64,000 bases of DNA from the NCBI GenBank assembly GCA_051294905.1, contig CM119371.1, positions 11,472,001-11,536,000 of the forward strand. The letters are read 5' to 3'. Of this stretch, positions 2,781-64,000 are shown in pieces. The position numbers and the translations under genes were made by a program. The DNA is from Botryllus schlosseri. Lineage: Eukaryota. Within the stretch, counting starts at the first letter, position 1; every line of letters begins with the position of its first letter. The notes below the pieces were generated by a model that saw nothing but the letters and a program-made list of their open reading frames with translations, made no database searches and was not told where the DNA came from.

Positions 2781-3110
2781 GCACATACAGTCGATTTACC
2801 GACTTTAAAGTTGACTCCTCCTCATCTTTTGATTGCATGTCATGAGAATGGAGATGAACAATCGTGGATGGCGGCCAATGGCATCACCATCAAGCACAGA
2901 TCCGAAAACCAAAGAAGACCGTTTGAGATAATAACTGATCTCGTAGCATGCTACTACTCATGGTATCTTAGTTATCCCAAGGTCTTTCAAATAATGCCAT
3001 TCATTCAACATGTTCTTGTTGGTGATAAAAATTCGGGATTTCAGTCGAACAAGTACGTCAATTCTTGGAAAAAATATCAAAATGCCCAGCAATCGATTGA
3101 AAAAATGTAG
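2781..3110 (+). CDS. Terminal exon of the SAM-domain accessory gene of copy A
   Basis: TTCCAG acceptor followed by AHTVDLPTLKLTPPHLL...YYSWYLSYPKVFQ. Close homolog of 4745-5074. The upstream exon 674-780 is 2 nt longer than in B (frameshift). Confidence 0.7.
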   Translation, partial: AHTVDLPTLKLTPPHLLIACHENGDEQSWMAANGITIKHRSENQRRPFEIITDLVACYYSWYLSYPKVFQIMPFIQHVLVGDKNSGFQSNKYVNSWKKYQNAQQSIEKM

Positions 3111-4744
3111 GCCAATTAATCTCCCTTGCTCCAAGTACTTGTGCTGTGAGTACTGCTTTCTTTTGGTATGGAATGTACCTGTACATAGTGGATTTTGTTA
3201 TTTTCTGCATTTGCAAAATAATTTGTCTTTTTTGTGGCTAGACTTTTGCTATGCTTTCAATCAGTAAACTTTTCGTTTTTAGTGGCACTGTACATTAGGA
3301 CTGTTCCAAAATAACATACTGTTGAGCCAAAATTGGTTTACTATGGTTTTTTGGCAATTCAATCAATCATTTGATCATGAAACTAGTCAATTTGTGAGAA
3401 ACAATATTTATTGACGACATTACTGTACATACACCCCCTGCTTTCGTTCCGAATCCAATTCTTTTATACTGTTATTACTGTTGAATAGTATATTAATATT
3501 GAAATGAACCCGAATATTTTCAGTCTACACTCGTCAGCAAATCTACACTGTAAGCTAAAACGCGTGCATTTATGCACCAAAAAAACACACAATAATCGAT
3601 TTTTTTTTTAGATGCCACATTGTGTGGTAGCGATGTATGTCATAATATTGTGTGGTCTGAAGTGGCATGTCAGTACCTATCGCTGCAGAGCTCGAAATTA
3701 TGTACCTGAAATACCTCCACACTGTGGATCCACAGGCTCTTCTCGAAACAATATTTTATTTTAAAAGAATCGGTTGTAGAATGTACAATAAAAGAAACAG
3801 TGTAAGTTGCCGTTAAATATGACAATACAAATTGAAAACATAACAATTTTTTGGCGCAGTAAGACAGGATTTTATACAGTAATAACAGAGATTCTTGCAG
3901 GTACAGAACTGCAATACACAACTGAATAGTATGTGCTGTGCATATTGAAATGAACCCAATTATTTTCGGATGACACTCGTCAGAGTTAATAGTCAGCAAC
4001 TGGTGGAGAATTGGAAATAACATTGTATATCAACAATCGTATCACAAAATAGGCCTTCACCAGCATGAAATTCCGAGAGAGTGAGCGTTTAATGCACTAT
4101 TCCCATGCAGGTGGTGCACAAACTTCTGTTGACAGAGTTTCGAATGGTGTATTTTGATAAGATATAAAATACACCATTCGAAACTCTGTCAACAGGAGTT
4201 CGTGTACCACCTGGGAATAGCGAATTGAATGCTCTCTCGAAATTTCATGCTGGTGACATCATATTTTGTGATACGATTGTTGATATACAACGTTCTTTCC
4301 AATTCTCTACTAGATTTGCTGACGAGTGTCGACCGAAAATATTCGGGTTCATTCCAATAAGAATATACTATTCAACAGTAATAACAGTATAAAAGAACTG
4401 GATTCGGAACTAAAGCAAGGTGTATGTACAGTAATGTTGTCAATAAATATTGTTTCTCACAAATTGACTGGTTTGATGATCAAATGATTGATTGAATTGC
4501 CAAAATGCCATAGTAAACCAATTTTGGCTCAACAGTATGTTATTTTGAAACAGCCCTAATGTACAGTGCCACTAAAAACGAAAAGTTAACTAATTGAAGG
4601 CATAGCAAAAGTCTAGCCACAAAAAAAAACGAATTATTGTGCAAAGGCAAAAAATAACGAAATCCACTATGTACAGGTACATTCCATACCAAAAGAAAGC
4701 ACTACTCACAGTCCAAGTACTTGGAGCAAGGGAGATTAATTAGC

Positions 4745-22700: not shown

Positions 22701-25700
22701 TTCACGGTGGGATCCGATTGGATCAACTACTTCAAATTCATCAAAATACAGGGAGAATAGCAGGCAGTCAGGGTGACTGGCTATCCCAAGATTACTTTTA
22801 AGATAATCTCCATGTAAGCATCTGTCATGGTATGACACCCGTGAAACGGAGTAGGCTTTGAAATGAGAGATTCGGCAGTGACATTAACAGTGCTTCCAAC
22901 TGCTGCATAAAAAGTACAAAGTAGCAGTATGCAGAAGCAGTCTGGAGCATATAACCATCTCGAGTTAAAATATTTTCAAACCATCTCCCAAATTCGACAC
23001 TTTCAGGTTCAATAAGACCAAAATGTTCCTTATAAGAAGTTTTTCTTGCTTCCTTTATTTGCAACAAGCACAGTGCATCTGAGGATGAATGAGTGTATCT
23101 GCAGAAATGCTACTAAACAAGTTGACATTGGATGACAAAACATCAGTAAGCCCAGAATCACTCAGTTTATGAATAGTTTAGTCGCAACAGTAAAGCTGCT
23201 TGAGCCAGAATACCGACTCGATAGGGCGCTGCTGAACTTTGTCTGCGCGGGCTCTATATTAAATAAAATCAATATTAGTAATTTTTTCATGATGTTATAT
23301 TCCAATGTAAAGGATTATCATACCATACTACACTGTTTTTGCCAGGAACTTAAGCCAGTTTTTACTGTACAATTTTGCATTCTGCCGATTGCTACAAAAA
23401 CGTGGTCATGTGCTGCTATGTTGTCGTGCTGTATTATATCTGCATGTGAAAGCTTACAATGAACCAAAATGCGTTATTGCACGTTAACGAATAACAGTCG
23501 ACTTGTTGAAATTGAAGACAGCACTTTGGCATATCGGTAGTAAATATGAACTGTCTTATAGCTTTGATTCAGGTAATGGATATTCTTAACACTTACCTTT
23601 CAATACGTCGACATGTCTTTGTTCTATGCCGTCTCCCAATAAGAATTCAGCTAATTCGTAATCCATCACGAACGATCACTAATAATACTCGCACTCGACT
23701 CGACACTTAGCACAGAAGACTCGCAACTCGACACTCGTGATAAATGCGACAGAATATGCGATCAACGCTCTCTGAATTCCCGCGCCTGACACACCAGCGA
23801 GCGCGTGATACCGCATTTCGTTTGTGAGTTTATGTTAGGAGATAAGAGGAAAATGAGGAATGAGCCCGATATATGTCACTCCCGCGAAAACAGACCTCGC
23901 TCTCTCGCTTGAACGGTGTTTACTTCGATATCACGCAACTCGAGAGAGGGAAAAAAGTCATTTCGTGTTTTAATCTAACGCTTGGAATTTAGAGTGTACA
24001 TCACCATACTTACCCCGAAAATCAATTATAAACCAATTTACCATCTGTAAATTCAGTAGGCGCCGAGCAGTTCCCACAGTGAATAATTTCTGCAAGTCGC
24101 CTTCAGTCAATGTCCCGAAGACACTCTCATCAATCTCATTTTCTGTGAGAAAAAGAAACAAAATATCTTGTAGCACCACCACAAAGTTACAAAGGCCAAC
24201 TCTGACCAATGTGTCTGGTCATAACATACTGAACGCCATTTATCGTATGGGTGATCTGTGGCCAGGGGTATTGGAAATCAGGAATATTACGGTACCCAAT
24301 ACAATGATGTTTCTTTAACAGCAAATGCGTTCATTGTTGGGCTGAAAAAGAGCACTTCTAATTTCTGATAGCGGCAGATGATACATTCATCAACAGAAAA
24401 CAAATCAGTGATTACAAAGAAATTGATAAATTCGAAGTCAGGTATCTTATACACAAAGACATCTCCCAAACTGTAGCAGATATTACGATAAGACACACTT
24501 TTAACAGAAAAAATATAATCACTGTTAGAATTTGAAATATGCCTTTCAATCTCAGGAACGTCAGATATGGGAACTTTGGATGCCACATGGAGATTTATTT
24601 TGGGTTCCAAATAATTAGTCTTCTTTTCCCCTTGTTTGTCAATCATTTGGATGTGTAGCGTACCGCTCCATGATTAACCTGTAATTACCCTCGCTGATTA
24701 CTGATTATGTTACTGCTACGTCTTGTTGTATGTACTCTTTTATGCAGTCGCCTTTAGTCACCGTCTGATCCAGTCGCTTTTAGTCACCGTCCGAGCCAGT
24801 CGATCTCCTAGTCTTCGTCGGACGAGCATCGTCACGTTTTAGTTGTTTTATTAAAAGAGCAATGCTGACTTGTATACTTTGACTTATCGAGCCGCGGACC
24901 AAGAAGAACGCGCGCTCACGACAGAGCACGCTATAGATGCACATCCAATGTTGATGGTATGAGCTTAAACTCATGGCCAAATTTTTGAAATTGAACCATC
25001 TTTTTGATTTAAAAAAGCCATTTTTTGCTTCGTATCTAATCGCACATTGCATCCGCAAGGGCCCAAACTGAATCATTTGTTCTGGCAAGTGGACAAGATA
25101 ATGTAGTTTGGGGTGAATGGCATATCGGGGTACAGGCGTATAATTTCTGCATTGTGAACAGCAATCAGATATTTGAGATCAACACAAGTTTCCTCAGATA
25201 CTACAGTAGATAGTGACAGCTGAACTATTTGAAGTAACCTCAGCAAATTCAACCAATGATCATTACTTTCAGAAATATCTGGTCCAATAATGAAAGGCAG
25301 AACTTGAAACAACACAAGCATGTTAGCAGCAGTTTGTGGAAAATTTGCTGAGGGTTGCAAATGTTTTCTCTCGATCATTTGAGGTTGATCTTTACGGTCA
25401 GATTTACTATACTCAAAATTCCGAAGCTGACTGTTCAGCCGAGGAAGTGACAATGTGCCATGTTCAATTTCACGTAGCAAAAATGCCTTAAACTCCATTT
25501 TCACTATTCCTTCGAGCAGAATATGCATAACGTCATGAACCATACATTTGGTCACATCAAAATAAGGGATTTCCGATAGGAAAGTTCTCTCGTTAACACC
25601 AAGTTGACGTGACATTGCGATTCGGTCTTGAGCACTCTCACATTGTTCAAGAGACTGCAGACAAATTTCATGCTCATTTTTGTTCCGAATTGGGCATTTT

Positions 25701-27335
25701 TCATGGATAGAATAAATTGAGAGATCTGTTTTAGCAACATTACATGTGCGGCATGGCTTATAAGCGCCACCAACACCTTCTTTAAAACCAGCCATTAGTT
25801 GGGAGGCAGGGGTGTCACCAACACAAAACAGAACGTATCCGTGTATAGTTTTTTTATACCATTCACTGTGAGAGTAACACATCTGGCCATTTGTTGCATC
25901 GCCTCAGAAAAATCCTTCAAAAGTTCATTACGAGAAGAAAATTCCTTCAAATCAATAGATTTTGCAATGCATAAGAGCTGAATGCTACCAAGCTGACTAC
26001 GGCATTCGGGTGGAATATTCAGAAGGGACCAGTAAAATGCAGACATTTTATGCTTTTTGCGATGGGCACCGATTGGATTCACAATTTCAAATTCATCATG
26101 ATACAGCGAAAGCAGCAGGCTGTCAGCATTACGATTAAACCCTATATGTGATTCAAGAAATTTTCCTTGTGTGACATCTTTCATTATACCATTTGTACGC
26201 GGTGATTGTGGTGATGGCAAAGTAAGGCTACACAATAACGTTTCAAGCTGCTTGAGAAAAGGAACAAAAAAACCTGTGGCAGGTTTTTCAATCAGCTGGT
26301 TCTTTCCACAATGATATTCATTTGCAAAACGCATTCCTAATACAACTTTTTCATGATTAATTAGGCCAAAATGCTCTCGATAGAATTTGTTTCTACCGGC
26401 TTTAGTTTGTAATAGTTAAAATCCCAATCCCTGTTCTCCCGAATGATAGGATGTACAAGGGCTGTCAATGGTGGTGTTAGTGGTACCTATCAAAGGAGAA
26501 AAATTGCCACCACCATTTGAATTGACTATATCATCAAGTCCTGCATCACTCAATTTATGTAATGTTTACAGTCTCAGCAATAAAGCTGCCATGGGTAAAA
26601 TGGAGGTAAGCTCAGAACAAGGTGTATAACCTGATCCACGAGCAATTTCATTCTGCATGGGTAAAGTAGATGTAAGTTCAGAGCAAGGTGAAGGGCTTGA
26701 TTTCTCAACATTTCCAATTTTGCAATAGGATTCGGGCAGCAGGTCATAGTCAAGAGAGGATGGTGCTTCATAGCAATACAAGTCCAGTGTCTTCATATTT
26801 TTGTGTCTCCTTTTACAATGGCTACGGATATCTTCATATTTTGAATACACTATGCCACAGATCCTGCATGACATGAGAACACTCGGATGTTGATTGTGAC
26901 GCCTCAATAAATGTGTTGACAGCAAATCGGTAGTTCCGATAAAGGGGCACAACCAACACTTTCCATTAGACATAGACATTCTACCGAACCATATCAAGTA
27001 ATTGAAACTGGTCAACTGCAAAGAAAGATGTACGTAACTTAATCTGCAAGTGAGGTTTCATCACTAGGTCTATTATGATATCTTCAGAGGAAGTACTTAA
27101 ACAGCATTAGCTCCCATTTTCATGGTCTGCTCTTATGGCGCATTAAGCTGCTAGATAGAAAATAGATAATCTATATATATACTCATACCGCTGGGCGCTG
27201 GTGCTGTGTGTGAAACTCGAAAACATGAACATGACATTATTTACAGATGATGTTGAAAATTTACATAAACGAATTACCTTGTAGTAAATCAATATGCTCC
27301 CTCTTAATTCCGTTTTGCACTAAAAATATCTCCAT
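4745..27335 (-). CDS. Spliced SAM-domain (SAMD3-like) accessory gene of EnSpm copy B. Exons include 27335-27278, 24142-24042, 14801-~14654, several in 14600-13700, 12296-12192 and 5074-4745
   Basis: Phase-compatible GT-AG junctions give MEIFLVQNGIKREHIDLLQ-ENEIDESVFGTLTEGDLQKLFTVGTARRLL (SAM-like). The last exon has DLVACYYAWDLSYP..FIQRVL. Intactness of the middle exons was not verified. Confidence 0.7.
5757..6274. mobile_element. Kolobok-like MITE at the orthologous position in EnSpm B
   Basis: Reverse-complement counterpart of 1537-2058 with homologous flanks. Confidence 0.7.
7281..7462. mobile_element. Small hAT MITE
   Basis: CAATGTTCCCTC / GAGGGAACATTT termini and 8-bp TSD ATCATGAC. Confidence 0.75.
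8199..9182 (+). pseudogene. Harbinger/HARBI1-like DDE transposase, frameshifted
   Basis: GVPNVIGCIDGTHIPI, RWPGSTHDSRTF and TRVLIEQCFGVLKQRF lie in different frames. The usual GDxGY motif is missing. Confidence 0.9.
9700..11544 (-). pseudogene. Possible convergent spliced second gene of the Harbinger element
   Basis: ATG at 11544 with a GTAAGT donor near 11416, a candidate exon at ~10807-10867 and a charged coiled-coil-like exon at ~9700-9919. No Myb/SANT motif was recognised. Confidence 0.3.
18510..18906 (-). repeat. 3' LTR
   Basis: Direct repeat of 21208-21604; two substitutions seen. Confidence 0.95.
18953..21043 (-). CDS. gag: BEL/Pao Gag (SAP-like N-terminus, coiled coil, DUF1759-like capsid region, three Cys/His knuckles) fused to a truncated aspartic protease
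   Basis: 696-aa intact ORF with PPTFNGDILTFPQFWESF, CAYCSKPHLLKDC, CFRCL..H..C, CTITGCGKTHHKLLH and RIAFDSFSQKSFVT. Confidence 0.9.
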   Translation of the reverse strand: MSFVKSPSESPKSPALAPTWKPLAKMAVDDLRPELQELGEATSGSEAVLTDRLGKIRDSDKSSQKKELQSSPLSTTGSPSELVMIFQMMKHQQDLDRQQHQLDREADRQQQKLDREADRQQQKLDREAANLKFQLQLEELELKHAQDREESERRFQLQLEEIRQKSLEDRLSLREILKDAVKKPGNHPSASIGDSCLPDVIIRKFRRLNAEVVDSLQALENKYEYSTSAEEINVFIRSVEMSMTDLKTFVDSKIDQLDDDDIKTEIIDGKRRSKEIYFVHIPLAKSKSSSLKAAEEAEHAAGSLPSGIVPPTFNGDILTFPQFWESFEPLVHKNPKVSHFYKISYLKAALKGSSSGLLNGFSSTAVNYEPAVNAVLKRYGKKQAIVRNHIEDLLQGEKVEFKIDKVRRLLDAATAKRAILSQYDVSWDQLFTQVLESQLPGTLHERWIRKTSPLIEADEVPDSDLLFEFLTTELATMESLHKSRDGSRSACDKSQHKDERVSCDTEKPDRSFSVQSLVVQSRPLSCAYCSKPHLLKDCFRFVKLTPAQRLADLVLKPGKVCFRCLAPKGHKGHPKHFHQCKERCTITGCGKTHHKLLHVSAEPSINSKCMVATIDVSTSALRDSDSNTLLPAALGRINHNGDGKPVRIAFDSFSQKSFVTRDLGGSLKLSPNKSDCLDISGFGGHSTSIRSSFEVG
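21208..21604 (-). repeat. 5' LTR
   Basis: Direct repeat of 18510-18906. Confidence 0.95.
22487..23540 (-). pseudogene. Remnant of copy C transposase (N- and C-terminal parts; catalytic core deleted)
   Basis: YKEHFGLIEPE..YFVLFMQQLEALL matches B YREHFGLINHE..FFVPFLKQLETLL. FESKFNAFAV matches B FSPTMNAFAV. Confidence 0.75.
24290..27021 (-). pseudogene. CACTA/EnSpm Tnp2-like transposase of copy B with N-terminal C2H2 zinc fingers; frameshifted and interrupted
   Basis: Motifs LYHDEFEIVNPIG, FYWSLLNIPPECRS, GDTPA..GFKE..CRTC, HDVMHILLEG and FGPLRMQCAIRYEAKN are spread over ORFs 26566-27021, 25795-26334, 25073-25882, 24780-25088 and 24287-24646. Two CxxC..HxxxxH fingers at the start. Confidence 0.9.
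24654..24935. mobile_element. Solo LTR (Ty3/gypsy-like) inserted in the B transposase
   Basis: TGTAGCGT..ACGCTATA termini and 4-bp TSD GATG. Excision restores the frame HWMCIQMIDK. Confidence 0.8.
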
Positions 27336-47496: not shown

Positions 47497-50400
47497 ACGT
47501 ACAGGGTTGTAACCAAATCACATGGTTCCGAGTCACGAGTCAATCTTACTTTTGTGGCTTTGACTCGAGTCAAGTCGAGTCACTTTCAATTCATCGTCGA
47601 GTCCGAGTCCAAGTCATCGTTTAAAGGGTCAGGTCCGAGTCATAGTGTTATGACTAGGGCCATTTAAAGTCATTAAATTCATATTTTTTTCTATGCATCA
47701 GTAAGTCGTGAAATCAATTTTAACGCGAAAACCACGTCCCTATGGGTTATATTAAGAAAGTTATAAAGTCATATAAAGTCATATTTTCTTGGTTATGTCA
47801 TATTTGAGTTATAAAGTCATATTGTTGTATACTTTAAATAAAAAGTGCCAATTTAAGCGGTGAAGCAATTAAGCACTAAAGCACTAAGAAAGTAGGGCAA
47901 TTTCTGATTGAACGAAGGCAAGCTTTAAGGTTAGCCTACATAGCACCACAGTCACAGACCTATGAGGTCACACATTGCATTGTGTTGCTATACAATCTGT
48001 TGTACTTCTGTGCACTGAAGTAGGACGTCATTTGAAGTTCAGTCAGTGGGTAGACAGGCTAACAGGCACTATCTTGGTCTACTTATATACAAATACATTC
48101 GGATTTGAATAAAATAGTATTTACGGTGGGCACTGCTATAATAAATAATTGAAGAATTGGTCACCGAAATATGCCTCCACTACAACAATATTTCAAACTT
48201 GATACTGAAAATGGAAAGTTGTAAGTACACCATCAGAGAGGCTAATGCTGATCTAAATGCCCTTGATTTCAGAAAAAAAATCCGCTTGAGCTGAAAAATT
48301 TTATTTAACCGTTTCGCACCGGCGTGTCTATTTTTCGACATGCCGGTACGAGAGAAGAGTACCGTAATTGAAACCACGATATATTACATATTAATCGTTC
48401 TAGGTCGTTGCTGTTCATTTCTGTGAATAGATATTGTTCGTACAAGTTCATTGATACCTTGTAATTTGATATTTATTATATCGAAGACGTCAAAATCGTA
48501 TATCAAACGCCGTAGATAAATATGTTGCAAAATACACTGTGTCGGCAATTTGCGCGTCATTGACCACTCTCATATAACGTTCTGTATGTTTCGTTCTAGC
48601 CGTCTTCGGGCATAGTTGTTTCATTATGTGAATAGCTAGTGTCCATACAAGTCCACACGTATCTTCATATCTGATATTAGTTACACCTAAGCTGATCAAA
48701 AGCTATGTGATAGGCCGCGTGACAAAAATATCCGCCGACGCATCATTTCGCAGACACGCGCGTTCCTCATACCCGCCATATACACTGTCGTTTAGTTGGT
48801 TTTATTCGTCATAACCAGCTGTAGTTTGTTGCAATGAATAGCGATTGTCAGTTTCTGTTTATATTTTGCTAAAGCAACTATACTAGTTAGTTCTATACCG
48901 CTCAAGGTTTCATTTGAAAACCGGGAAGCGAATTCCGTCAGACTACCGTACCAGCTTCAAGCACATGGCTGAATACCCGTCACATACCGTGAAATATATC
49001 GTGTTCTGATAGCCATAAACATTCATAGATTGTGTCTGTGAATTGTTGTAGCCTATATGATTCTAAATAACGGCTAATGATAAAGTATAATTCGGAATAC
49101 ATACAATATTACTCAGCGATAATACCTACGCAAAAGCGTGCGTCAGTAGTGAGGGTTTCGACCTTATAGACCGTCCAATCAGAGAGCGCCACGTCATCCT
49201 AATTGCCACACCCATTTTCATGCCCTGAGGGTACATTCATCTGCTACGTCATCTGTGCCACATCATCAAGCGCCACGCCTATAGTGCCACATCATCCATC
49301 CATTGCTATATCATCGCTGCATTGATTGCCGCATCTTGATACTTTTCTCAGATATTGTATTATGTGTATTTAGGACTAATATCATCCGTCCATATTTTTT
49401 AAACTTTATTTTATGTGTACAAGTTACGGTTTCTGCAGTTTCCACATTTTACGACTTATGATTGCCGCGTCAAATCTTACCTTGGCTAGAATCGACAGAT
49501 TTTCTATTATGTGTATTTAGGACTATGTATTTAAATTCCTATTCAGATTATACATAAATGCGAAAACTATGATGTCTATGCAAGGCTATATTCTCCGGAT
49601 AATATTATTAATATCAAAATTCTACACATCATCACTAATTACTTAATATAAAATGCGATTTTGAGCGCTGCGACTTGATAATATGAATCCCTACGCTTCT
49701 GATGCATGATTTTTTGTGATAAGGACCTAGGTAACATTCAGAGTCTGCAACGATTGTTTGGATATACATTATAGCAATACCCCACTAAACTATAGGCGGT
49801 TATATTACTCTATTGGTCAGAGATAACTCATCCGTCCATATTTTTAAACTTGATTTTATGTATACAAGTTACGGTCTCTGCAGCCTCCACATTTTACGAC
49901 TTATTTTCATTAGACGCAGGCAAGCGATTCTCCAGTTCGTAGCTACGGAAACAAATCACTCGCATGTGCGCGTTCCGAATAGTCTTGTAGAATTTTCTAA
50001 AGTCGTAACAGCTTAGCAGCAATACGCGAATCCCCAGGCGAAAATAATCGAACGAACTATAGCCGCAGGCGTGCGATTCGCGGGGCTTTAATTATATAAA
50101 CACTTTCGATACCTGTACGCGAACCCCAGCGTTATAACGATTAGGTCTAATTAGCACGTTCTGAAGCCGTAAATTTAGTCAACATCATTGAGATAGCCAT
50201 GAATTAAAGATGGTAATCGAGTGTGACAATAGCACTCGTCAAGGTTAGACAAACATAACCTTAAACTACTCTCTACTTCACAAAATATAAAGTTATAAAA
50301 GTAAGCAGATTTCTATGAAAACCCGTTATCGTTACGTAGAAGTGGGGTTAGTCTACGAACATAACCACTTACTTACTTTGAAATCTCTACTTGTATTCGA

Positions 50401-51197
50401 GCGGAATTGCGACCGATGCATTAATGACTTTAATACTCTATATTTTAAATTATCATCGCAAAGTGCACGAATTTCCATGTTGATCAAATAATACGAACTT
50501 TGCTTGCTTTCAGAGTAGAGCTTTGTAAAGTAGATCTTTTTGGTGTTGGACTCAAGTTCCAATGAACAAGTGTTCACGTAGCTTCGAGGTCTGAATGAGT
50601 CTTTTAAAGTAGATAAAAACGACAAAAACTAACCGAAAGAATTTACGAAGTTTGGATGCGCCATATTTAGGTTTTTAAAAATTATTCATACCCATGATTC
50701 GAAATATTGTTAACTAACTTATGTTTTCGACATAAGATAAGCGTCAAGTGTACAAATTTCGATGTTGCGCAAATACCACAAACTTTGCTTGCTTTCAGAG
50801 CCGGCAACTAAATGCAAGACAGACTTTACGCAAAAAGTTGATATTCTGAACATTTTATCAAGTTAATAGTTTAAAAACTTATACTTGAGCACTACGAAAT
50901 GTACAAGTACTTTACCTTTACACGACGTTTTTTGTAAAATGAATACTAATTTTATTAAGAAAACTATGGGAATGAGGTATTAGAAAATACCAATTCGAGA
51001 GGTTCTCTACTAGATAGTGCATAGCTTTCTCCATCGCCTATACCTGATGCTGTCGGATAAGTTTATGACACTGACACCTCTCATCCAGAGCAATGAAAAA
51101 AGTACATTCCAACATTTTATTATCACTAAATTTCTACTAAAGTACAGGAAGTGCAGATCTCCAACAAGTGAAAAAGTACGTATTAAAGGTATAGTTT

Positions 51198-51428
51198 GCC
51201 AGATAACTGAAAATAATAAATAAAATTAAAAAATTAAAAAGCGCGAAATATTACATTTTATCCCGGAACGCAACAAGAAAAATCGTATGAGTTTTGTAAA
51301 GTAAATAGAAAACTATGCCTGATAACTGAAAATAATAAAAAATAAAATTAAAAAGCGCGAAAATTACATTTTATCCCGGAACGCAACACGAAAAATCGTA
51401 TGACTTTTTTAAAGTAGAAAGAAAACTA
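51198..51428 (+). repeat. Tandem duplication, 2 x ~115 bp (mirrored at 61561-61791)
   Basis: GATAACTGAAAATAATAAA...TTATCCCGGAACGCAAC occurs twice. Confidence 0.85.
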
Positions 51429-52756
51429 CACTATTCCGATGCACTAAAGACTTTCACACTCCGGATTTTGTATAGTATATAATAATTTTACATTGCGGGG
51501 TATTCAGTAAACTTTAATCCAGTGATCCTCCGTCTATTTTCAATCACGCTCCTCTTATTAGTATAGGTTTCGAACCACACATCCAGTACGTTTTATGGGG
51601 ATTAATATTTTTAGACTCAAATACATTTCCAATGTACCAAAGTCTTACAGTACAGATTTTGTAGAGTAGTTAGAAAACTACCTTTTGAGTCGATAGCGAA
51701 GTACTTGCTCATTTTAGAGTACTCAAGTATTGGTTTGGCCTTGGTAGCAATGTACTCAATCAAGTGATTATCTATTTACAGCGCACTAAAAATTTACTGA
51801 TACTAAAATGTTAAAATGTACTTTTTCAATGCCCTCGATGAGCAGCGCCAGTTTCAACTATATCCTATCATGCATTTTCGCGCTGCAGAATGACTTATCG
51901 CAACGAAAAATAGCAAAAATACATCGAGAATCTGCAAACTCTCACTGCGAAATATTTGACTTTTGCGAATTATCCTTCAAAGTGAGCTTACATATTGGAT
52001 ATTATCAAAACCCTCTCCATATCGAAATAATTGTACATTTGGAGTACTTAAGTATAGGTTTTGCCTGCTTGCGCTATACTTAATCAAGTGATTATCTATT
52101 TAGACTTCATCTACTTCTATTTATATTTCAGAGTTTTCAGTTATCAGACAAATAATACATTCAATACTTACTTTTTTACTCGCTCGGAAATCAGCACTTC
52201 ATGTACTTCAGAAGAAATTTACTGGTAATAGAATGTTGAAATGTACTTTTCCATTGGCCTTGATGAGCGGGCCCAGTTTCATCTATATTGTACAATGCAT
52301 TTTCACACTTCAGAATGACTTATCGCAATGAAAAATAGCACAAATACATCGAGAATTCTCGAACCATCACTATACGATAATTGAGTTTTACAAATTACCC
52401 GTCAAAGTGAACCTACATGTTGGGTATTATCCAAAACCTCGTGGAATTTTGCTCCGAGCGACAAATCCTTTGAATTAAGGTGGAAGTACCTATTTCCGAC
52501 TAAGTAAAACGTCAGTATTCCAGGTCTATTTCTGCTCAATTCTGAAACTATAACGGATTTGAAGCAGTACAATATCATAAACACTTGAGAGTATTTGTTG
52601 CATGTAGGCAAAAAACGTACTTGAGTACTCGGAAGAAGTCAATGCTTACTTGTTTAGCCGCTCGGACATCGTCACTTCTTGTACTTTAATGGAAATTTAC
52701 TGCTGATAAATGAGTAATCGACTTTACTCGATATTCGCGTACCATGAAACTGAAGA

Positions 52757-53182
52757 ATGAATAGACGCGTTTTCAAACTATAGAATGATATAGTCTCTGC
52801 AAAATGTTTTTGATATCACGATAACTTTTTACATGAATGGTCACGTATCCTAATATTCAAATAACCCAACACAGAGCTCGTACTTACAGGAATATCGTAG
52901 TTCTTGTAACAAAGTTGTATGTGCACAATATATATTTAAGGTAAGTCCTACAATTCATGATTTCGTCCGATGAATAGACGCGTTTTCAAACTATAGAATG
53001 ATATAGTCTCTGCAAAATGTTTTTGATATCAAGATAACTTTTTACATGAATGGTCACGTATCCTAATATTCAAATAACCCAACACAGAGCTCGTACTTAC
53101 AGGAATATCGTAGTTCTTGTAACAAAGTTGTATGTGCACAATATATGTTTAAGGTAAGTCCTACACTTCATGATTTCGTCCG
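52757..53182 (+). repeat. Tandem duplication, 2 x 213 bp (mirrored at 59807-60232)
   Basis: ATGAATAGACGCGTTTTCAAAC begins at both 52757 and 52970. Confidence 0.9.
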
Positions 53183-56100
53183 AGTTTGTATTTTAGAAAA
53201 TATTATACAACAATTTACTTTACTAACGAGAAGTGTCGAGTTATCGAATGATTTTCCCTTCCGTCAAAACAAATAGAATGTGAAACTATATTGCTAACGT
53301 TTCTAACCCTTTGCACACCAGTGGTAAATCACACAAGCAACAAGTTTCGAGAATCGAGTTATTGAATAACGTGAAAGCGTTTTTCCAGTGTCAAGTCGTT
53401 ATGTTGATTAAAGCGTTTATTTTAATACCCCGAAGTGAGACTTCGAAACTATCGTCAGTTCTCCAAGAGCAAATATCGTGCTCTACAAGTGTTAAGTTGT
53501 TGTATTATGTAGCTGGTAATTGATGCACGTAAGCCAAGCATCGAACCAACTTGTGTTAACTTGCGTTATTATGTACCTAGTAATTGGTGCGAGTAATCCC
53601 GCAACTGCTGCTGTTCAATGGCTTTACCGCGTTCTTACCAAGTACCTTAATAAGGATAGACAGCCCCAAGCAGATAATGTAAGTATGTATGTATTTATGA
53701 ATGATGGGTCTTATGGTGCTTGATGATAGAAGCTGGTCTTCTATTCTATATTCCGAAATAATCAAGCTGGTGGTTTTACCAGCAGCGCGCCACATAGAAA
53801 CTTTAGTAGAATCACTTATTATAACTCCTCACGTTCACTCAAGTAAATCTAATTTGATACTCGAGTACTGAACCTTAATTTTCCAGCAGTGTGATAAACG
53901 CCGTCAGATGGTACTCAACATCGCGCAATTCCGCTCGAATACAAGTAAAAGTACAGATTTCGAAGTAAGTAAGTACGTGAGTAACTGGTTATGTTTGTAG
54001 ACTATATCTCCACTTCTATCGTTCAGAGATGTTGCGCAGAGAAGTACATGTATTTCTTCAAAGTACTCAAGTGATTTTTTTGCCTACATGCACCAACTAC
54101 TCAAGTGTTTATGATATAGGCCTGCTTCAAATTCAAGACAGTTTCAGTATTAAACAAAAATGGACCTTGAATATTAACTTTTACAATGTGAAATTTTATA
54201 TGCATAAACTAAGAAACGTCACTTTTACAATCGTTCGGTATGATTTCTATATTATTCCACTCTCGTTATTGGACCGCGGTGTGACGCCGAGCTATATCTC
54301 GATGCCTAGGCTTCCGCATTTATTGTTTTTTCGATTTATTCTGCCCTATGTAGATTTAACATAAGGAAGGTTATTTCACTCATAAAATTCGGAATACGTA
54401 TTTGCTCGAGTTAAAGCCATAACGTTTGGAGTGAAATTTTACGTGGTTTTCGTTGATATCCAACTGGGCTAATTTCGAAATGTAAATTGAAAAACTCAAA
54501 TATCGCATAGTAGGACTTCCCAAATTTTCGGTATATTTTTACTATTTTTTCACGTTGATGATAAGTCGTTCAGGACAGCGAAATGCATTATAGGAAATAG
54601 ATGAAACTGGTACAATTCATCGAGACCCCTGAAAAAAAAAGTACATTTCATTTCAACATTTTATTAGCAGGTAATCGAAATACCACAAACTGTGCTAACC
54701 TTTGGAGTTGTTAAGTAAAGAAGTACTCGTACTTTTTCAGAGTATACCAAGTAGGTTTTTTGCCTACATGCACCAAATACTCTCAAGTCCTTATGATATC
54801 GGAGTGCTTCAACTTCATGATAATTATAGTATTAAGCAGAAATATATCTGGAGTACTAACGTTTTACTTACTCGGAAATGACTACTTCTATCTTATTTTG
54901 AAGGATTCCTCGCTCGACGCGTAATTTTATGAGGTTTTGAATAATATCCAACATATAGGCTCACTTTGAAGGGTACTTCGTAAAACTCAAATATTGCACA
55001 GTGAGAGTTCGCAAACTCTAGATGTATTTTCGGTATTTTTATTGCGGTAAGTCATTCTGCGGCGCGATAATGCATCGTAGGATATAGATGAAACTGACAC
55101 CGCTCACCAAGGCCACTGAAAAGAAGTACATTTCAACATTTTAGTAGCAGTAAATTCCTAGTAAAGGACAAGAAGTGATGATTTCCGAGTGAGGTAAAAA
55201 GTAAGTATTGAAGGTATAGTTTGCTCGAAAAACCGACAACTCTGAAATAGAAGTAGATGCAGTGTAAATAGTTAATCACTTGATTAAGTATAGCGCAAGC
55301 AGGCCAAACCTATACTTGAGTACTCCAAAATGTGCAAGTACTTCGCTATCGACTCACTCCACGTAAAAAGTGACTTGGTTTTAGAGTACTTTATCAGTTC
55401 TTGACAGTTTCAGTTTTAGACAAAATTTGGAATAAAAAACTAGCTCATTCACCCATTCGGAAATCTTTTCTTTAACCTGTACTTGAGTGTAGCAAGTAAA
55501 TCTCATTTATTATTAATTCTACATGTACTTGTACACTTGACCATGTGGTATGACTTACATAATGACTTTTCGCTATATTTGAAGTCTGTCAAATAGCAGT
55601 ATATGTTACGGTGAGCTTCTATTCGTTCTGTATGATCATCTTGACTAACGATATTCATTCGACGAGCTCTTCAGTGATAGTCCTGGGACTTGGAACAGTG
55701 TTATATGACATCATAGCGATACGAAGTTACGACAGTTTAAAATTATCTACCAGGACACCAAATTTCGTTAGTTCATCTCCACCTTCAAATATCGTGTTAT
55801 ACAAATATTGTGTATACGGGATAAATACATATATGGCTATGTTGTTGCAATCTTCAAAAAAGTACCTCCCTCAGTAAGCAATTGCTCGTAGGCTATGCAT
55901 ACACATGAGGACAGTTACATTAACGAGTGGTAACTTGTTGTATTATGTAGCTAGTAATTAGTGCAAGTAAGTCCGCAACTACTGTTCAAGGCCTTTTCCT
56001 CGTTTTTACCAAGCATCCTCGTAAGGATAGACAGCCCCAATCAGCTAATGTAAGTGTGTACTGTGTATGTAGGCCTATGTATGAGGGGTCTTATGCCGCT

Positions 56101-56872
56101 TGACAAATGAAGTTGAACATTCCCGCGCGCGTCTTAGGATTAGGTGGTAGGGTTAGAAAAAATTAGGTTTATGAGCGCGCGGGAATGTTTTTTATGCTTG
56201 TACAACTCAAATACCCATCGGTCTGCTTACTACATTTTAAAGATTCTCTCCGCTATTGTGTATACAAGAATATACTTCTCTTAGTAACCAATTTCTCGTG
56301 AATTCCGAACCACATTGACGTGTGTTAACTTCTGGTATTAGGTGATAATATCATTTTCATGTCTGATAATGCCACTTGTCAAGGTGATACAAACGTAAGT
56401 TCAAGCTACTTTAATGTTAATTCATTCAATTAGCTTGTGTTTATCATGAAATTACTTGGATTATGCTGAGTTTCGCTATTAAAAAACACTGCAACATGAT
56501 TGAATTAATCAAACACAGCGCAAATAATTACAAATCGCCTGCAGTAGGTATTCTTTTATGATATACGAAGGCGGATGACACGATTATCTTATAATACTCT
56601 AGTAATTCATTTATTTATCTTGTGTTAATTATGAAATCACTTGGCTCACGCTGTAAATTACACTGCAACGTGAAAAGTTATTATATTTATTCTCATAAGT
56701 TAGAGCTAAATTTGAACTCGTTGGAAAAATAAGATTCAGTATGCCTACTTGATTATCAAATTAGATTTACTTGAGTAAACGTGAGGAGTTATAAGTTATT
56801 CTACTGGAGTTTCTACGAGGTGAGGTCCTGTCAAAAACCACTAACTTGATTATTTCGGAATAGAATAGACGA

Positions 56873-59800
56873 TCAACTTCATTTGTCAAGCGGCATAAGA
56901 CCCCTCATACATAGGCCTACATACACAGTACACACTTACATTAGCTGATTGGGGCTGTCTATCCTTACGAGGATGCTTGGTAAAAACGAGGAAAAGGCCT
57001 TGAACAGTAGTTGCGGACTTACTTGCACTAATTACTAGCTACAAAATACAACAAGTTACCACTCGTTAATGTAACTGTCCTCATATGTATGCATAGCCTA
57101 CGAGCAATTGCTTACTGAGGGAGGTACTTTTTTGAAGATTGCAACAACATAGCCATATATGTATTTATCCCGTATACACAATATTTGTATAACACGATAT
57201 TTGAAGGTGGAGATGAACTAACGAAATTTGGTGTCCTGGTAGATAATTTTAAACTGTCGTAACTTCGTATCGGTATGATGTCATATAACACTGTTCCAAG
57301 TCCCAGGACTATCACTGAAGAGCTCGTCGAATGAATATCGTTAGTCAAGATGATCATACAGAACGAATAGAAGCTCACCGTAACATATACTGCTATTTGA
57401 CAGACTTCAAATATAGCGAAAAGTCATTATGTAAGTCATACCACATGGTCAAGTGTACAAGTACATGTAGAATTAATAATAAATGAGATTTACTTGCTAC
57501 ACTCAAGTACAGGTTAAAGAAAAGATTTCCGAATGGGTGAATGAGCTAGTTTTTTATTCCAAATTTTGTCTAAAACTGAAACTGTCAAGAACTGATAAAG
57601 TACTCTAAAACCAAGTCACTTTTTACGTGGAGTGAGTCGATAGCGAAGTACTTGCACATTTTGGAGTACTCAAGTATAGGTTTGGCCTGCTTGTGCTATA
57701 CTTAATCAAGTGATTAACTATTTACACTGCATCTACTTCTATTTCAGAGTTGTCGGTTTTTCGAGCAAACTATACCTTCAATACTTACTTTTTACCTCAC
57801 TCGGAAATCATCACTTCTTGTCCTTTACTAGGAATTTACTGCTACTAAAATGTTGAAATGTACTTCTTTTCAGTGGCCTTGGTGAGCGGTGTCAGTTTCA
57901 TCTATATCCTACGATGCATTATCGCGCCGCAGAATGACTTACCGCAATAAAAATACCGAAAATACATCGAGAGTTTGCGAACTCTCACTGTGCAATATTT
58001 GAGTTTTACGAAGTACCCTTCAAAGTGAGCCTATATGTTGGATATTATTCAAAACCTCATAAAATTACGCGTCGAGCGAGGAATCCTTCAAAATAAGATA
58101 GAAGTAGTCATTTCCGAGTAAGTAAAACGTTAGTACTCCAGATATATTTCTGCTTAATACTATAATTATCATGAAGTTGAAGCACTCCGATATCATAAGG
58201 ACTTGAGAGTATTTGGTGCATGTAGGCAAAAAACCTACTTGGTATACTCTGAAAAAGTACGAGTACTTCTTTACTTAACAACTCCAAAGGTTAGCACAGT
58301 TTGTGGTATTTCGATTACCTGCTAATAAAATGTTGAAATGAAATGTACTTTTTTTTTCAGGGGTCTCGATGAATTGTACCAGTTTCATCTATTTCCTATA
58401 ATGCATTTCGCTGTCCTGAACGACTTATCATCAACGTGAAAAAATAGTAAAAATATACCGAAAATTTGGGAAGTCCTACTATGCGATATTTGAGTTTTTC
58501 AATTTACATTTCGAAATTAGCCCAGTTGGATATCAACGAAAACCACGTAAAATTTCACTCCAAACGTTATGGCTTTAACTCGAGCAAATACGTATTCCGA
58601 ATTTTATGAGTGAAATAACCTTCCTTATGTTAAATCTACATAGGGCAGAATAAATCGAAAAAACAATAAATGCGGAAGCCTAGGCATCGAGATATAGCTC
58701 GGCGTCACACCGCGGTCCAATAACGAGAGTGGAATAATATAGAAATCATACCGAACGATTGTAAAAGTGACGTTTCTTAGTTTATGCATATAAAATTTCA
58801 CATTGTAAAAGTTAATATTCAAGGTCCATTTTTGTTTAATACTGAAACTGTCTTGAATTTGAAGCAGGCCTATATCATAAACACTTGAGTAGTTGGTGCA
58901 TGTAGGAAAAAAAATCACTTGAGTACTTTGAAGAAATACATGTACTTCTCTGCGCAACATCTCTGAACGATAGAAGTGGAGATATAGTCTACAAACATAA
59001 CCAGTTACTCACGTACTTACTTACTTCGAAATCTGTACTTTTACTTGTATTCGAGCGGAATTGCGCGATGTTGAGTACCATCTGACGGCGTTTATCACAC
59101 TGCTGGAAAATTAAGGTTCAGTACTCGAGTATCAAATTAGATTTACTTGAGTGAACGTGAGGAGTTATAATAAGTGATTCTACTAAAGTTTCTATGTGGC
59201 GCGCTGCTGGTAAAACCACCAGCTTGATTATTTCGGAATATAGAATAGAAGACCAGCTTCTATCATCAAGCACCATAAGACCCATCATTCATAAATACAT
59301 ACATACTTACATTATCTGCTTGGGGCTGTCTATCCTTATTAAGGTACTTGGTAAGAACGCGGTAAAGCCATTGAACAGCAGCAGTTGCGGGATTACTCGC
59401 ACCAATTACTAGGTACATAATAACGCAAGTTAACACAAGTTGGTTCGATGCTTGGCTTACGTGCATCAATTACCAGCTACATAATACAACAACTTAACAC
59501 TTGTAGAGCACGATATTTGCTCTTGGAGAACTGACGATAGTTTCGAAGTCTCACTTCGGGGTATTAAAATATACGCTTTAATCAACATAACGACTTGACA
59601 CTGGAAAAACGCTTTCACGTCATTCAATAACTCGATTCTCGAAACTTGTTGCTTGTGTGATTTACCACTGGTGTGCAAAGGGTTAGAAACGTTAGCAATA
59701 TAGTTTCACATTCTATTTGTTTTGACGGAAGGGAAAATCATTCGATAACTCGACACTTCTCGTTAGTAAAGTAAATTGTTGTATAATATTTTCTAAAATA

Positions 59801-62800
59801 CAAACTCGGACGAAATCATGAAGTGTAGGACTTACCTTAAACATATATTGTGCACATACAACTTTGTTACAAGAACTACGATATTCCTGTAAGTACGAGC
59901 TCTGTGTTGGGTTATTTGAATATTAGGATACGTGACCATTCATGTAAAAAGTTATCTTGATATCAAAAACATTTTGCAGAGACTATATCATTCTATAGTT
60001 TGAAAACGCGTCTATTCATCGGACGAAATCATGAATTGTAGGACTTACCTTAAATATATATTGTGCACATACAACTTTGTTACAAGAACTACGATATTCC
60101 TGTAAGTACGAGCTCTGTGTTGGGTTATTTGAATATTAGGATACGTGACCATTCATGTAAAAAGTTATCGTGATATCAAAAACATTTTGCAGAGACTATA
60201 TCATTCTATAGTTTGAAAACGCGTCTATTCATTCTTCAGTTTCATGGTACGCGAATATCGAGTAAAGTCGATTACTCATTTATCAGCAGTAAATTTCTAT
60301 TAAAGTACAAGAAGTGACGATGTCCGAGCGGCTAAACAAGTAAGCATTGACTTCTTCCGAGTACTCAAGTACGTTTTTTGCCTACATGCAACAAATACTC
60401 TCAAGTGTTTATGATATTGTACTGCTTCAAATCCGTTATAGTTTCAGAATTGAGCAGAAATAGACCTGGAATACTGACGTTTTACTTAGTCGGAAATAGG
60501 TACTTCCACCTTAATTCAAAGGATTTGTCGCTCGGAGCAAAATTCCACGAGGTTTTGGATAATACCCAACATGTAGGTTCACTTTGACGGGTAATTTGTA
60601 AAACTCAATTATCGTATAGTGATGGTTCGAGAATTCTCGATGTATTTGTGCTATTTTTCATTGCGATAAGTCATTCTGAAGTGTGAAAATGCATTGTACA
60701 ATATAGATGAAACTGGGCCCGCTAATCAAGGCCAATGGAAAAGTACATTTCAACATTCTATTACCAGTAAATTTCTTCTGAAGTACATGAAGTGCTGATT
60801 TCCGAGCGAGTAAAAAAGTAAGTATTGAATGTATTATTTGTCTGATAACTGAAAACTCTGAAATATAAATAGAAGTAGATGAAGTCTAAATAGATAATCA
60901 CTTGATTAAGTATAGCGCAAGCAGGCAAAACCTATACTTAAGTACTCCAAATGTACAATTATTTCGATATGGAGAAGGTTTTGATAATATCCAATATGTA
61001 AGCTCACTTTGAAGGATAATTCGCAAAAGTCAAATATTTCGCAGTGAGAGTTTGCAGATTCTCGATGTATTTTTGCTATTTTTCGTTGCGATAAGTCATT
61101 CTGCAGCGCGAAAATGCATGATAGGATATAGTTGAAACTGGCGCTGCTCATCGAGGGCATTGAAAAAGTACATTTTAACATTTTAGTATCAGTAAATTTT
61201 TAGTGCGCTGTAAATAGATAATCACTTGATTGAGTACATTGCTACCAAGGCCAAACCAATACTTGAGTACTCTAAAATGAGCAAGTACTTCGCTATCGAC
61301 TCAAAAGGTAGTTTTCTAACTACTCTACAAAATCTGTACTGTAAGACTTTGGTACATTGGAAATGTATTTGAGTCTAAAAATATTAATCCCCATAAAACG
61401 TACTGGATGTGTGGTTCGAAACCTATACTAATAAGAGGAGCGTGATTGAAAATAGACGGAGGATCACTGGATTAAAGTTTACTGAATACCCCGCAATGTA
61501 AAATTATTATATACTATACAAAATCCGGAGTGTGAAAGTCTTTAGTGCATCGGAATAGTGTAGTTTTCTTTCTACTTTAAAAAAGTCATACGATTTTTCG
61601 TGTTGCGTTCCGGGATAAAATGTAATTTTCGCGCTTTTTAATTTTATTTTTTATTATTTTCAGTTATCAGGCATAGTTTTCTATTTACTTTACAAAACTC
61701 ATACGATTTTTCTTGTTGCGTTCCGGGATAAAATGTAATATTTCGCGCTTTTTAATTTTTTAATTTTATTTATTATTTTCAGTTATCTGGCAAACTATAC
61801 CTTTAATACGTACTTTTTCACTTGTTGGAGATCTGCACTTCCTGTACTTTAGTAGAAATTTAGTGATAATAAAATGTTGGAATGTACTTTTTTCATTGCT
61901 CTGGATGAGAGGTGTCAGTGTCATAAACTTATCCGACAGCATCAGGTATAGGCGATGGAGAAAGCTATGCACTATCTAGTAGAGAACCTCTCGAATTGGT
62001 ATTTTCTAATACCTCATTCCCATAGTTTTCTTAATAAAATTAGTATTCATTTTACAAAAAACGTCGTGTAAAGGTAAAGTACTTGTACATTTCGTAGTGC
62101 TCAAGTATAAGTTTTTAAACTATTAACTTGATAAAATGTTCAGAATATCAACTTTTTGCGTAAAGTCTGTCTTGCATTTAGTTGCCGGCTCTGAAAGCAA
62201 GCAAAGTTTGTGGTATTTGCGCAACATCGAAATTTGTACACTTGACGCTTATCTTATGTCGAAAACATAAGTTAGTTAACAATATTTCGAATCATGGGTA
62301 TGAATAATTTTTAAAAACCTAAATATGGCGCATCCAAACTTCGTAAATTCTTTCGGTTAGTTTTTGTCGTTTTTATCTACTTTAAAAGACTCATTCAGAC
62401 CTCGAAGCTACGTGAACACTTGTTCATTGGAACTTGAGTCCAACACCAAAAAGATCTACTTTACAAAGCTCTACTCTGAAAGCAAGCAAAGTTCGTATTA
62501 TTTGATCAACATGGAAATTCGTGCACTTTGCGATGATAATTTAAAATATAGAGTATTAAAGTCATTAATGCATCGGTCGCAATTCCGCTCGAATACAAGT
62601 AGAGATTTCAAAGTAAGTAAGTGGTTATGTTCGTAGACTAACCCCACTTCTACGTAACGATAACGGGTTTTCATAGAAATCTGCTTACTTTTATAACTTT
62701 ATATTTTGTGAAGTAGAGAGTAGTTTAAGGTTATGTTTGTCTAACCTTGACGAGTGCTATTGTCACACTCGATTACCATCTTTAATTCATGGCTATCTCA

Positions 62801-63844
62801 ATGATGTTGACTAAATTTACGGCTTCAGAACGTGCTAATTAGACCTAATCGTTATAACGCTGGGGTTCGCGTACAGGTATCGAAAGTGTTTATATAATTA
62901 AAGCCCCGCGAATCGCACGCCTGCGGCTATAGTTCGTTCGATTATTTTCGCCTGGGGATTCGCGTATTGCTGCTAAGCTGTTACGACTTTAGAAAATTCT
63001 ACAAGACTATTCGGAACGCGCACATGCGAGTGATTTGTTTCCGTAGCTACGAACTGGAGAATCGCTTGCCTGCGTCTAATGAAAATAAGTCGTAAAATGT
63101 GGAGGCTGCAGAGACCGTAACTTGTATACATAAAATCAAGTTTAAAAATATGGACGGATGAGTTATCTCTGACCAATAGAGTAATATAACCGCCTATAGT
63201 TTAGTGGGGTATTGCTATAATGTATATCCAAACAATCGTTGCAGACTCTGAATGTTACCTAGGTCCTTATCACAAAAAATCATGCATCAGAAGCGTAGGG
63301 ATTCATATTATCAAGTCGCAGCGCTCAAAATCGCATTTTATATTAAGTAATTAGTGATGATGTGTAGAATTTTGATATTAATAATATTATCCGGAGAATA
63401 TAGCCTTGCATAGACATCATAGTTTTCGCATTTATGTATAATCTGAATAGGAATTTAAATACATAGTCCTAAATACACATAATAGAAAATCTGTCGATTC
63501 TAGCCAAGGTAAGATTTGACGCGGCAATCATAAGTCGTAAAATGTGGAAACTGCAGAAACCGTAACTTGTACACATAAAATAAAGTTTAAAAAATATGGA
63601 CGGATGATATTAGTCCTAAATACACATAATACAATATCTGAGAAAAGTATCAAGATGCGGCAATCAATGCAGCGATGATATAGCAATGGATGGATGATGT
63701 GGCACTATAGGCGTGGCGCTTGATGATGTGGCACAGATGACGTAGCAGATGAATGTACCCTCAGGGCATGAAAATGGGTGTGGCAATTAGGATGACGTGG
63801 CGCTCTCTGATTGGACGGTCTATAAGGTCGATACCCTCACTACT
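56873..63844 (-). repeat. Right arm of the giant inverted repeat
   Basis: Reverse complement of 49145-56116 with scattered substitutions and no net indel. Confidence 0.97.
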
Positions 63845-64000
63845 TGCGTCTGGGTATACAAAGAGCTGTCGTACATCGATATATATCTTACGTTGTAGTA
63901 ATGATAAGCATTTGCAGTAAATCATTATGGTAAGGACTGTAAATATCCGTCTACGAACACTAAAATGACTAATATGGGGTCACAACAGTTTGAGTTATAA

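Follow-up and report, generated by a model that had tools for sequence, protein, structure and literature searches.

The stretch of DNA analysed here, referred to throughout as the window, comprises 64,000 nucleotides of the Botryllus schlosseri genome (contig CM119371.1 of assembly GCA_051294905.1, positions 11,472,001 to 11,536,000). Near its right end lies a mobile element of 14,700 bp (49145-63844) that was inserted as one unit and consists almost entirely of two inverted arms of 6,972 nt apiece (49145-56116 and 56873-63844), with 756 nt between them (56117-56872) that show no self-complementarity. The arms account for about 95% of the element's length, compared to about 95-99% in the family to which it belongs, and the palindrome they form far exceeds chance expectation. 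An earlier account of this locus, made from the letters alone and called here the sequence-only reading, had counted about a dozen substitutions and no net indel between the arms by eye; aligned base by base, they differ by exactly 12 substitutions and 0 indels. The ends AGTAGT and ACTACT, with TGCGTC directly at either side, were likewise read as it had described them. The 12 differences are unevenly placed, with one at arm position 13, in a hypervariable stretch described below, none at arm positions 14 to 2,868, and the other 11 at 2,869 to 6,801. Judged by this divergence (0.17%), the copy would be of middling age among those that we sampled.

Both flanks of the element (48645-49144 and 63845-64000) are a copy of another abundant repeat family. 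Two genome searches, one with the 500 bp that adjoin the element on the left and one with the 156 bp that adjoin it on the right, including the copy of the target site duplication (TSD), gave 280 and 191 candidate matches, respectively, at 96-99% identity. Of the 39 further copies of the flanking repeat that were listed, 25 show matches to both flanks, and the two matches have exactly 6 bp in common; for the other 14, the 40 scored candidates included no match to the right flank, and no conflicting arrangement was seen. Three of the 25 overlapping sites were read, and all run ...GCG TGCGTC TGGG..., with TGCGTC present once and the flanks contiguous. Because these three paralogous empty sites hold a single TGCGTC, the element in the window was genuinely inserted, with duplication of a 6-bp target site, and is no fold-back of the assembly. 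Integration as a single unit, which the sequence-only reading had proposed, is thereby borne out, and the empty site with one TGCGTC that it had suggested looking for exists, at paralogous positions in other copies of the flanking repeat.

The element is a member of a family of about 200 copies, which has a conserved centre of its own. In a scan of the assembly (495.5 Mb, 219 contigs), a pattern composed of the terminal motif and a subterminal box matched 155 forward and 163 reverse sites, that is, 318 termini, and a pattern for the central clamp, loop and clamp matched 203 sites; the reversed pattern, used as a control, matched 0 sites in both cases. The 40 listed end pairs span 7.0-25.7 kb (median about 15.5 kb), more than half of them (23) lying at 14.2-16.8 kb. 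Thirteen sibling loci out of about 200 were examined in full, and all 13 carry long inverted arms of 1.9-8.0 kb with 98.8-100% identity. Seven are near-complete palindromes with main arm alignments of 5.8-8.0 kb (99.4-99.96% identity), while six are partial or compound, with arms of 1.9-7.8 kb (98.8-100% identity). The siblings share the termini. A perfect 6-bp TSD was found in nine of the ten end pairs for which flanks were at hand, each TSD being different and the nine together showing no common target; the tenth pair is taken up below. What had been suspected to be a one-off defective genome is instead this dispersed family with a conserved centre.

The locus G000:C7:14251000-14287800 is a compound copy of 36 kb, in which several local palindromes occur and a second terminus of the family is nested; it also contains hAT-like open reading frames (ORFs) twice, in inverted orientation, together with one reverse-transcriptase ORF. 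At G000:C5:26372000-26396300 lies a 24-kb copy of apparently three arm-length segments with a 100-N gap, which may have been mis-assembled or may be a concatemer of higher order. Assembly artefacts are known to include long palindromes, and this gap with its third arm could be held up in favour of regarding the whole family as fold-backs produced during assembly. We give that explanation next to no credence: both junctions of the element in the window meet a known repeat exactly at the 6-bp duplication, 25 paralogous empty sites are contiguous, and hundreds of copies with TSDs of their own are spread over many contigs.

Neither the element nor any of the 13 siblings sampled carries element genes. 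The longest stop-to-stop frame in the left arm and the 756-nt segment is 127 amino acids (aa) long, slightly more than the about 111 aa given in the sequence-only reading. At E<0.01, Pfam profiles matched none of 46 frames of at least 45 aa from one arm and the 756-nt segment of the element in the window, and none of 32 frames of at least 50 aa from a sibling of another subfamily. Genes for a capsid, a packaging ATPase or a protease thus had no match among these 78 frames, in agreement with the sequence-only reading, which had seen no likeness to pPolB, integrase, ATPase or capsid. Frames of at least 150 aa are absent from the first seven siblings, and in the other six, Pfam-positive frames occur only in the nested hAT and reverse-transcriptase insertions of one compound copy. 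A search of the window with Rfam at the gathering threshold gave 0 matches, and no tRNA was found there.

What the copies do retain is a fixed order of parts, running from each end through (AGT)2, a 24-bp stretch, a region of about 1.15 kb, 5-6 kb of filler and some 240 bp to a GC clamp and a loop (Table 1). The ends, the terminal region and the fold-back centre would be the cis-acting parts. The terminal region is 96-98% identical in 12 of 12 siblings up to arm position about 1,150-1,180 and opens with a CCAAT-box-like motif and a motif containing ACGTCA. In the left arm, it starts CCAATCAG...CACGTCATCC and has repeated ACGTCATC and GCCAC motifs inside. The filler comes in at least two types that are unrelated at a 90% identity cut-off, type A, which includes the window copy, and type B, the commonest in the sample; in the left arm it contains tandem repeats at 51197-51428 and 52757-53183. 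The roughly 240 bp next to the clamp, by comparison, are about 90% conserved between filler types.

At the centre, the 44-nt loop contains three TTAGG, compared to 18 in both orientations in the whole 14.7 kb. When the centre of the window copy was folded as single-stranded DNA, the clamp closed an open loop (-19.8 kcal/mol, z = -2.55). The loop is composed of degenerate telomere-like units with one strand G-rich; its first half is conserved across subfamilies, while its second half is variable. A flip/flop of the loop was considered and rejected, as its two orientations merely follow the orientation of insertion. In complete copies, the 698 bp beyond the loop are present at both sides, mirrored, whereas in the window their left partner is gone except for its last 14 bp, which are the left half of the clamp. 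This indicates that the left arm lost 684 bp beside the centre, and the 756-bp 'spacer' of the sequence-only reading, given there with the right length, is a deletion scar and not a unique core, being made up of 14 bp of clamp, 44 nt of loop and 698 bp of right inner arm.

Table 1. Parts of the palindromic element and its target site duplication, in positions of the window
Feature	Position	Strand	Remark
Left TSD copy TGCGTC	49139..49144	.	Single TGCGTC in three paralogous empty sites
Left terminal (AGT)2	49145..49150	+	Motif at all 318 pattern-matched termini, but required by the pattern
Left 24-bp hypervariable stretch ('barcode')	49151..49174	+	One base (49157) unlike the right-end copy
Left conserved terminal region, ~1.15 kb	49175..50324	+	Common to all subfamilies; 96-98% identity, 12/12 siblings
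Left-arm non-coding filler, type A	50325..56116	+	About half of the arm consists of internal direct/inverted repeats
Left half of central GC clamp ACATTCCCGCGCGC	56117..56130	+	684-bp left-inner-arm deletion adjoins at junction 56116/56117
Central asymmetric 44-nt loop	56131..56174	+	Three TTAGG; turn-around point of the palindrome
Right inner arm, 698 bp	56175..56872	-	Starts with right clamp half; inverted on both sides in other copies
Right-arm filler	56873..62664	-	Mirrors 50325-56116
Right conserved terminal region	62665..63814	-	Mirrors 49175-50324
Right 24-bp hypervariable stretch	63815..63838	-	Compared with left-end copy and siblings
Right terminal (ACT)2	63839..63844	-	Read directly
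Right TSD copy TGCGTC	63845..63850	.	Paralogous empty sites

The history of the arms became apparent when both arms of two copies were aligned together, which was done for five pairs of copies. The differences between copies that were found in both arms numbered 44, 18, 54, 45 and 539, or 700 in total. Differences between the two arms of a copy, 3-36 over roughly 7.5 kb and 148 as counted, were all private, and not one asymmetry was shared between copies, in either orientation, in any of the five comparisons. The same holds for larger changes: in one comparison, 1,383 and 1,382 indel columns were symmetric versus at most 4 asymmetric, and at G000:C6:1601200-1617200 a tandem duplication of 1,386 bp (99.35% identity) is mirrored in both arms. 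Subfamilies even differ in their whole filler, yet all copies are symmetric. Since 700 differences are symmetric, while the asymmetries are private and none is shared, it appears that each transposition restores the symmetry of the arms, in the manner of snap-back copying. The simplest reading of these alignments is that a new copy would be born as a perfect palindrome off one arm, with its arms drifting apart afterwards. Mismatch correction in a hairpin of the displaced strand, as the step that establishes symmetry, is unlikely for kilobase-scale changes.

Several points weigh against such a renewal at transposition. The sample is limited to the 13 loci named above, and polishing of the assembly could erase or symmetrise single-base differences between arms, although it could not create symmetry on the kilobase scale. 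Arm-to-arm gene conversion, moreover, could be another source of symmetry: the elements would then have moved whole, and their arms would have been kept alike by ongoing conversion in the chromosome, as in the palindromes of sex chromosomes. Arm identities of 98.8-100% and the lack of shared asymmetry would follow from this as well. The tenth end pair, at G000:C8:19518700-19529100, has inverted flanks and no TSD; its flanks are inverted copies of each other over at least 234 bp, so that the palindrome extends into host DNA, and symmetry can consequently arise in situ, although the locus could be either an in-situ fold-back duplication or a mis-assembly. Against conversion, however, private asymmetry varies 12-fold (from 3 to 36), whereas the 700 differences between copies are symmetric throughout, and asymmetric indels of 101 bp and 684 bp have remained in situ. 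From this spread and these persisting indels it follows that homogenisation within the chromosome is inefficient; symmetric changes of kilobase scale and different fillers would, in addition, need one arm to template the other. We therefore regard gene conversion as an unlikely explanation for the family as a whole. The palindromes of primate Y chromosomes, with arms more than 99.9% identical and a short spacer, are alike in appearance, but they are immobile, lack TSDs, carry genes and are kept alike by arm-to-arm gene conversion, whereas the symmetry described here seems to be tied to transposition.

The 24-bp stretch next to each terminal motif evolves differently from its surroundings. Among 13 copies, nucleotide diversity is 0.49 at positions 7-30 compared to 0.037 at positions 31-500, a difference of about 13-fold, and 52 distinct versions were present among 58 listed loci. 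The length of the stretch is nevertheless fixed, with 23 nt at one end in just one of the 58. Both ends of an element carry identical versions in 35 of 40 pairs, and the other five pairs differ by 1-2 nt, so that 7 left/right differences were seen in 40 pairs versus about 2 predicted from the arm-wide rate of asymmetry. On this evidence, the stretch acts like a spacer whose length is fixed and whose sequence is free, and which would mutate fast in the active cycle and not in the chromosome. Because one version occurs beside different subterminal variants, while near-identical copies (C25 and C11, 0.6% apart) hold unrelated versions, it also looks as if the stretch were exchanged between lineages as a cassette, besides mutating. 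No internal donor was found, for apart from one nested terminus there were only scattered 11-mer matches at chance level. Possible causes of the variability are errors in early protein-primed synthesis, repair of the ends during integration, or the copying of ends from co-replicating templates. A guide-like role was rejected, as one and the same version occurs in copies inserted at unrelated targets.

Among known mobile elements, the ends recall Mavericks, also known as Polintons. Vertebrate Mavericks have (AGT)2//(ACT)2 or (AG)3//(CT)3 end motifs and perfect 6-bp TSDs, terminal inverted repeats (TIRs) of 46-1,447 bp and a size constrained at 16,862 +/- 1,678 bp, and their end repeats serve jumping-back in protein-primed replication (PMC8097293). 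The present family shares with Mavericks/Polintons the (AGT)2//(ACT)2 ends, the 6-bp TSD and TIRs and, roughly, a size near 15-17 kb (Barreat & Katzourakis 2021, PMC8097293; Kapitonov & Jurka 2006, cited there), its median of about 15.5 kb overlapping the lower part of the 16.9 +/- 1.7 kb given for Mavericks and the window copy measuring 14.7 kb. It differs in that inverted repeats make up about 95-99% of the element, where Mavericks have TIRs of 46-1,447 bp, in having no genes for pPolB, integrase, capsid, ATPase or protease, in possessing a central clamp and loop of its own, and in having no autonomous relative that we could find in the genome. Polintons, by the definition in PMC5499653, encode a protein-primed DNA polymerase and a retrovirus-like integrase; since the element here encodes nothing, it is not a Polinton in the strict sense and is at most a non-autonomous derivative or satellite of the Maverick type.

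Taken together, these features lead us to propose, as a reading that we hold to be probable though by no means secure, that the family is non-autonomous and obligately palindromic, that it uses machinery of the Maverick/Polinton or adintovirus type in trans, and that its palindrome is reborn by snap-back. Synthesis would begin, protein-primed, at one (AGT)2 end, where the trinucleotide repeat would permit an adenovirus-like jump-back, and one arm alone would serve as template and be copied as far as the centre. There, the nascent strand would fold back on the GC clamp and be extended along itself until its own 5' end was reached. From the snap-back hairpin so formed, a linear duplex of about 15.5 kb would arise whose two ends are identical, and this duplex palindrome would be inserted by an integrase of retroviral type, generating the 6-bp TSD. 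Doubling of a 7.7-kb replicon would in this way reach the genome size of Mavericks, possibly reflecting a packaging constraint. After insertion, the arms would drift, as by the 12 substitutions of the window copy, and the centre would be prone to deletions such as the one of 684 bp. Snap-back copying of this kind accounts for the symmetry, the symmetric large changes, the identical ends, the conserved centre and the doubled 7.7-kb size.

The conserved centre, GC-clamped and asymmetric with its telomere-like TTAGG, would also suit a linear replicon with a covalently closed hairpin end, comparable to poxviruses or phage N15, that had integrated as a dimer, the loop then being the former hairpin telomere. 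A telomere resolvase or any other gene is not present, however, and the outer ends show a repeat of the protein-priming type and an integrase-type TSD; structurally, such a dimer is nearly identical to what snap-back copying would produce. We consider it improbable, though somewhat less so than an assembly artefact.

The snap-back or copy-back defective genomes of viruses are defined in a review as highly symmetric palindromes (PMC13506859); the family shares with them the symmetric palindrome and, as proposed, the copying back along the nascent strand. It would resemble them further in keeping cis-acting ends only, in depending on a helper and in having a size compatible with a capsid. Unlike them, it is integrated in the germline, has diversified into about 200 copies and possesses a conserved fold-back site, and its filler has no recognisable parent-virus sequence. 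Long inverted-repeat DNA was reportedly found in incomplete particles of adenovirus by Daniell in 1976, and undersized helper-dependent adenovirus genomes are packaged as dimers, both being precedents among DNA viruses. A copy-back or snap-back origin, as the sequence-only reading had suggested, receives strong indirect support from the symmetry across the family, albeit not for a lone defective genome.

Against the proposal, filtered scans of the genome brought up no helper on which the family would depend. In filtered six-frame scans of the assembly, which leave absence unproven, the pPolB profile PF03175 gave 9 candidates and 0 matches, and the adenain profile PF00770 gave 0 candidates. For the Pox_A32 ATPase PF04665, only weak matches were obtained. 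The rve profile PF00665 yielded 150 scored matches from 1,389 candidates, mostly in long frames (many of more than 1,000 aa) resembling retrotransposon polyproteins, and none was placed inside a listed element. Exact subterminal patterns had 0 matches in viral and metagenome contigs, and no autonomous element with the same termini appeared in the assembly scans or among the 13 siblings. With no Maverick gene and no viral match, the link to Mavericks is made solely by the ends, the TSD and the size. The missing helper weakens the Maverick assignment without refuting it, as an exogenous helper would lie outside the assembly. Of the non-autonomous Polinton satellite put forward by the sequence-only reading, the ends, the TSD, the lack of genes and the sizes near 15.5 kb stand, while the autonomous Polinton with the same termini that was to accompany it did not emerge from filtered scans of the 495-Mb assembly.

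This absence of Maverick genes would fit a foldback-type DNA transposon of some other or unknown superfamily (e.g. IS3EU or Dada) that moves by cut-and-paste, its likeness to Mavericks being coincidental. The terminal region has repeated short motifs of the kind that many transposases bind, and other DNA transposons, among them hAT and a Plavaka/KDZ fragment, abound in the genome. On the other hand, exact (AGT)2//(ACT)2 ends combined with a 6-bp TSD are the published Maverick signature, the sizes cluster around 15.5 kb, like those of Mavericks, even though the filler is unrelated, and cut-and-paste would leave unexplained why all differences between copies are symmetric. The insertion sites, furthermore, show no apparent targeting of small-RNA genes of the Dada type, and of the features of IS3EU and Dada the family would share only the 6-bp TSD. 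We judge an origin in another superfamily to be unlikely. The foldback transposons FB of Drosophila, Galileo and Tetris (PMC4079207, PMC4168063) are alike in their very long arms, internal repeats and little coding sequence. With its 6-bp TSD and (AGT)2 ends, the present family falls outside FB and Galileo. The latter two have 9-bp and 7-bp TSDs, other ends, and shorter arms that consist of tandem arrays, and we know of no report of re-symmetrisation at each generation in foldback transposons.

Two further observations concern other sequences. A repeated frame of 274 aa with a weak P-loop match of the Pox_A32 type (E 0.0057) is found at G000:C1:35767436-35767612 and ten further loci, and it probably belongs to some other mobile element. 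The window itself is transposon-rich, with a 704-aa open frame on the minus strand (18953-21067) that contains DUF1759, which we take to be a domain of BEL/Pao-type retrotransposons, and a Plavaka/KDZ-type transposase fragment, also on the minus strand (25073-25903).

In the literature that we searched, which did not extend to curated repeat libraries, no palindromic, gene-less, non-autonomous Maverick family is described. Going further than the copying mechanism, one can ask whether the family represents virus satellites whose palindromic form is part of their design, a lineage that passes on half its sequence per generation, snaps back at a telomere-like loop to finish exactly at its own 5' end, and relies on an exogenous helper resembling a Maverick or adintovirus that the host assembly lacks. 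We offer this only tentatively, as a possibility that we rate well below the mechanism itself. If true, a single end of an integrated copy could suffice to launch progeny without excision, a replicon of 7.7 kb would by doubling reach 15.5 kb and so fill a capsid, damage in one arm would be erased, and the 24-bp stretch would be a trace left by protein-primed initiation that is prone to errors or to recombination.

The family bears on whether virus-like transposons have size-constrained satellites, on how very long perfect palindromes, which are normally unstable, persist in an animal-sized genome, and on the cause of the roughly 13-fold higher variability of a 24-bp stretch relative to the adjoining sequence. 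For B. schlosseri, some 200 copies of about 15.5 kb amount to roughly 3 Mb of near-perfect palindromes, which matters for genome stability and for assembly quality, and these palindromes may possibly yield hairpin RNA. To our knowledge, no one has yet demonstrated directly how Mavericks/Polintons replicate and move, and the models in use, of protein priming and of a single-stranded hairpin, are both inferred. With hundreds of gene-less copies that keep the cis-acting parts only, the family would provide a natural minimal replicon, opening the steps of this replication to testing.

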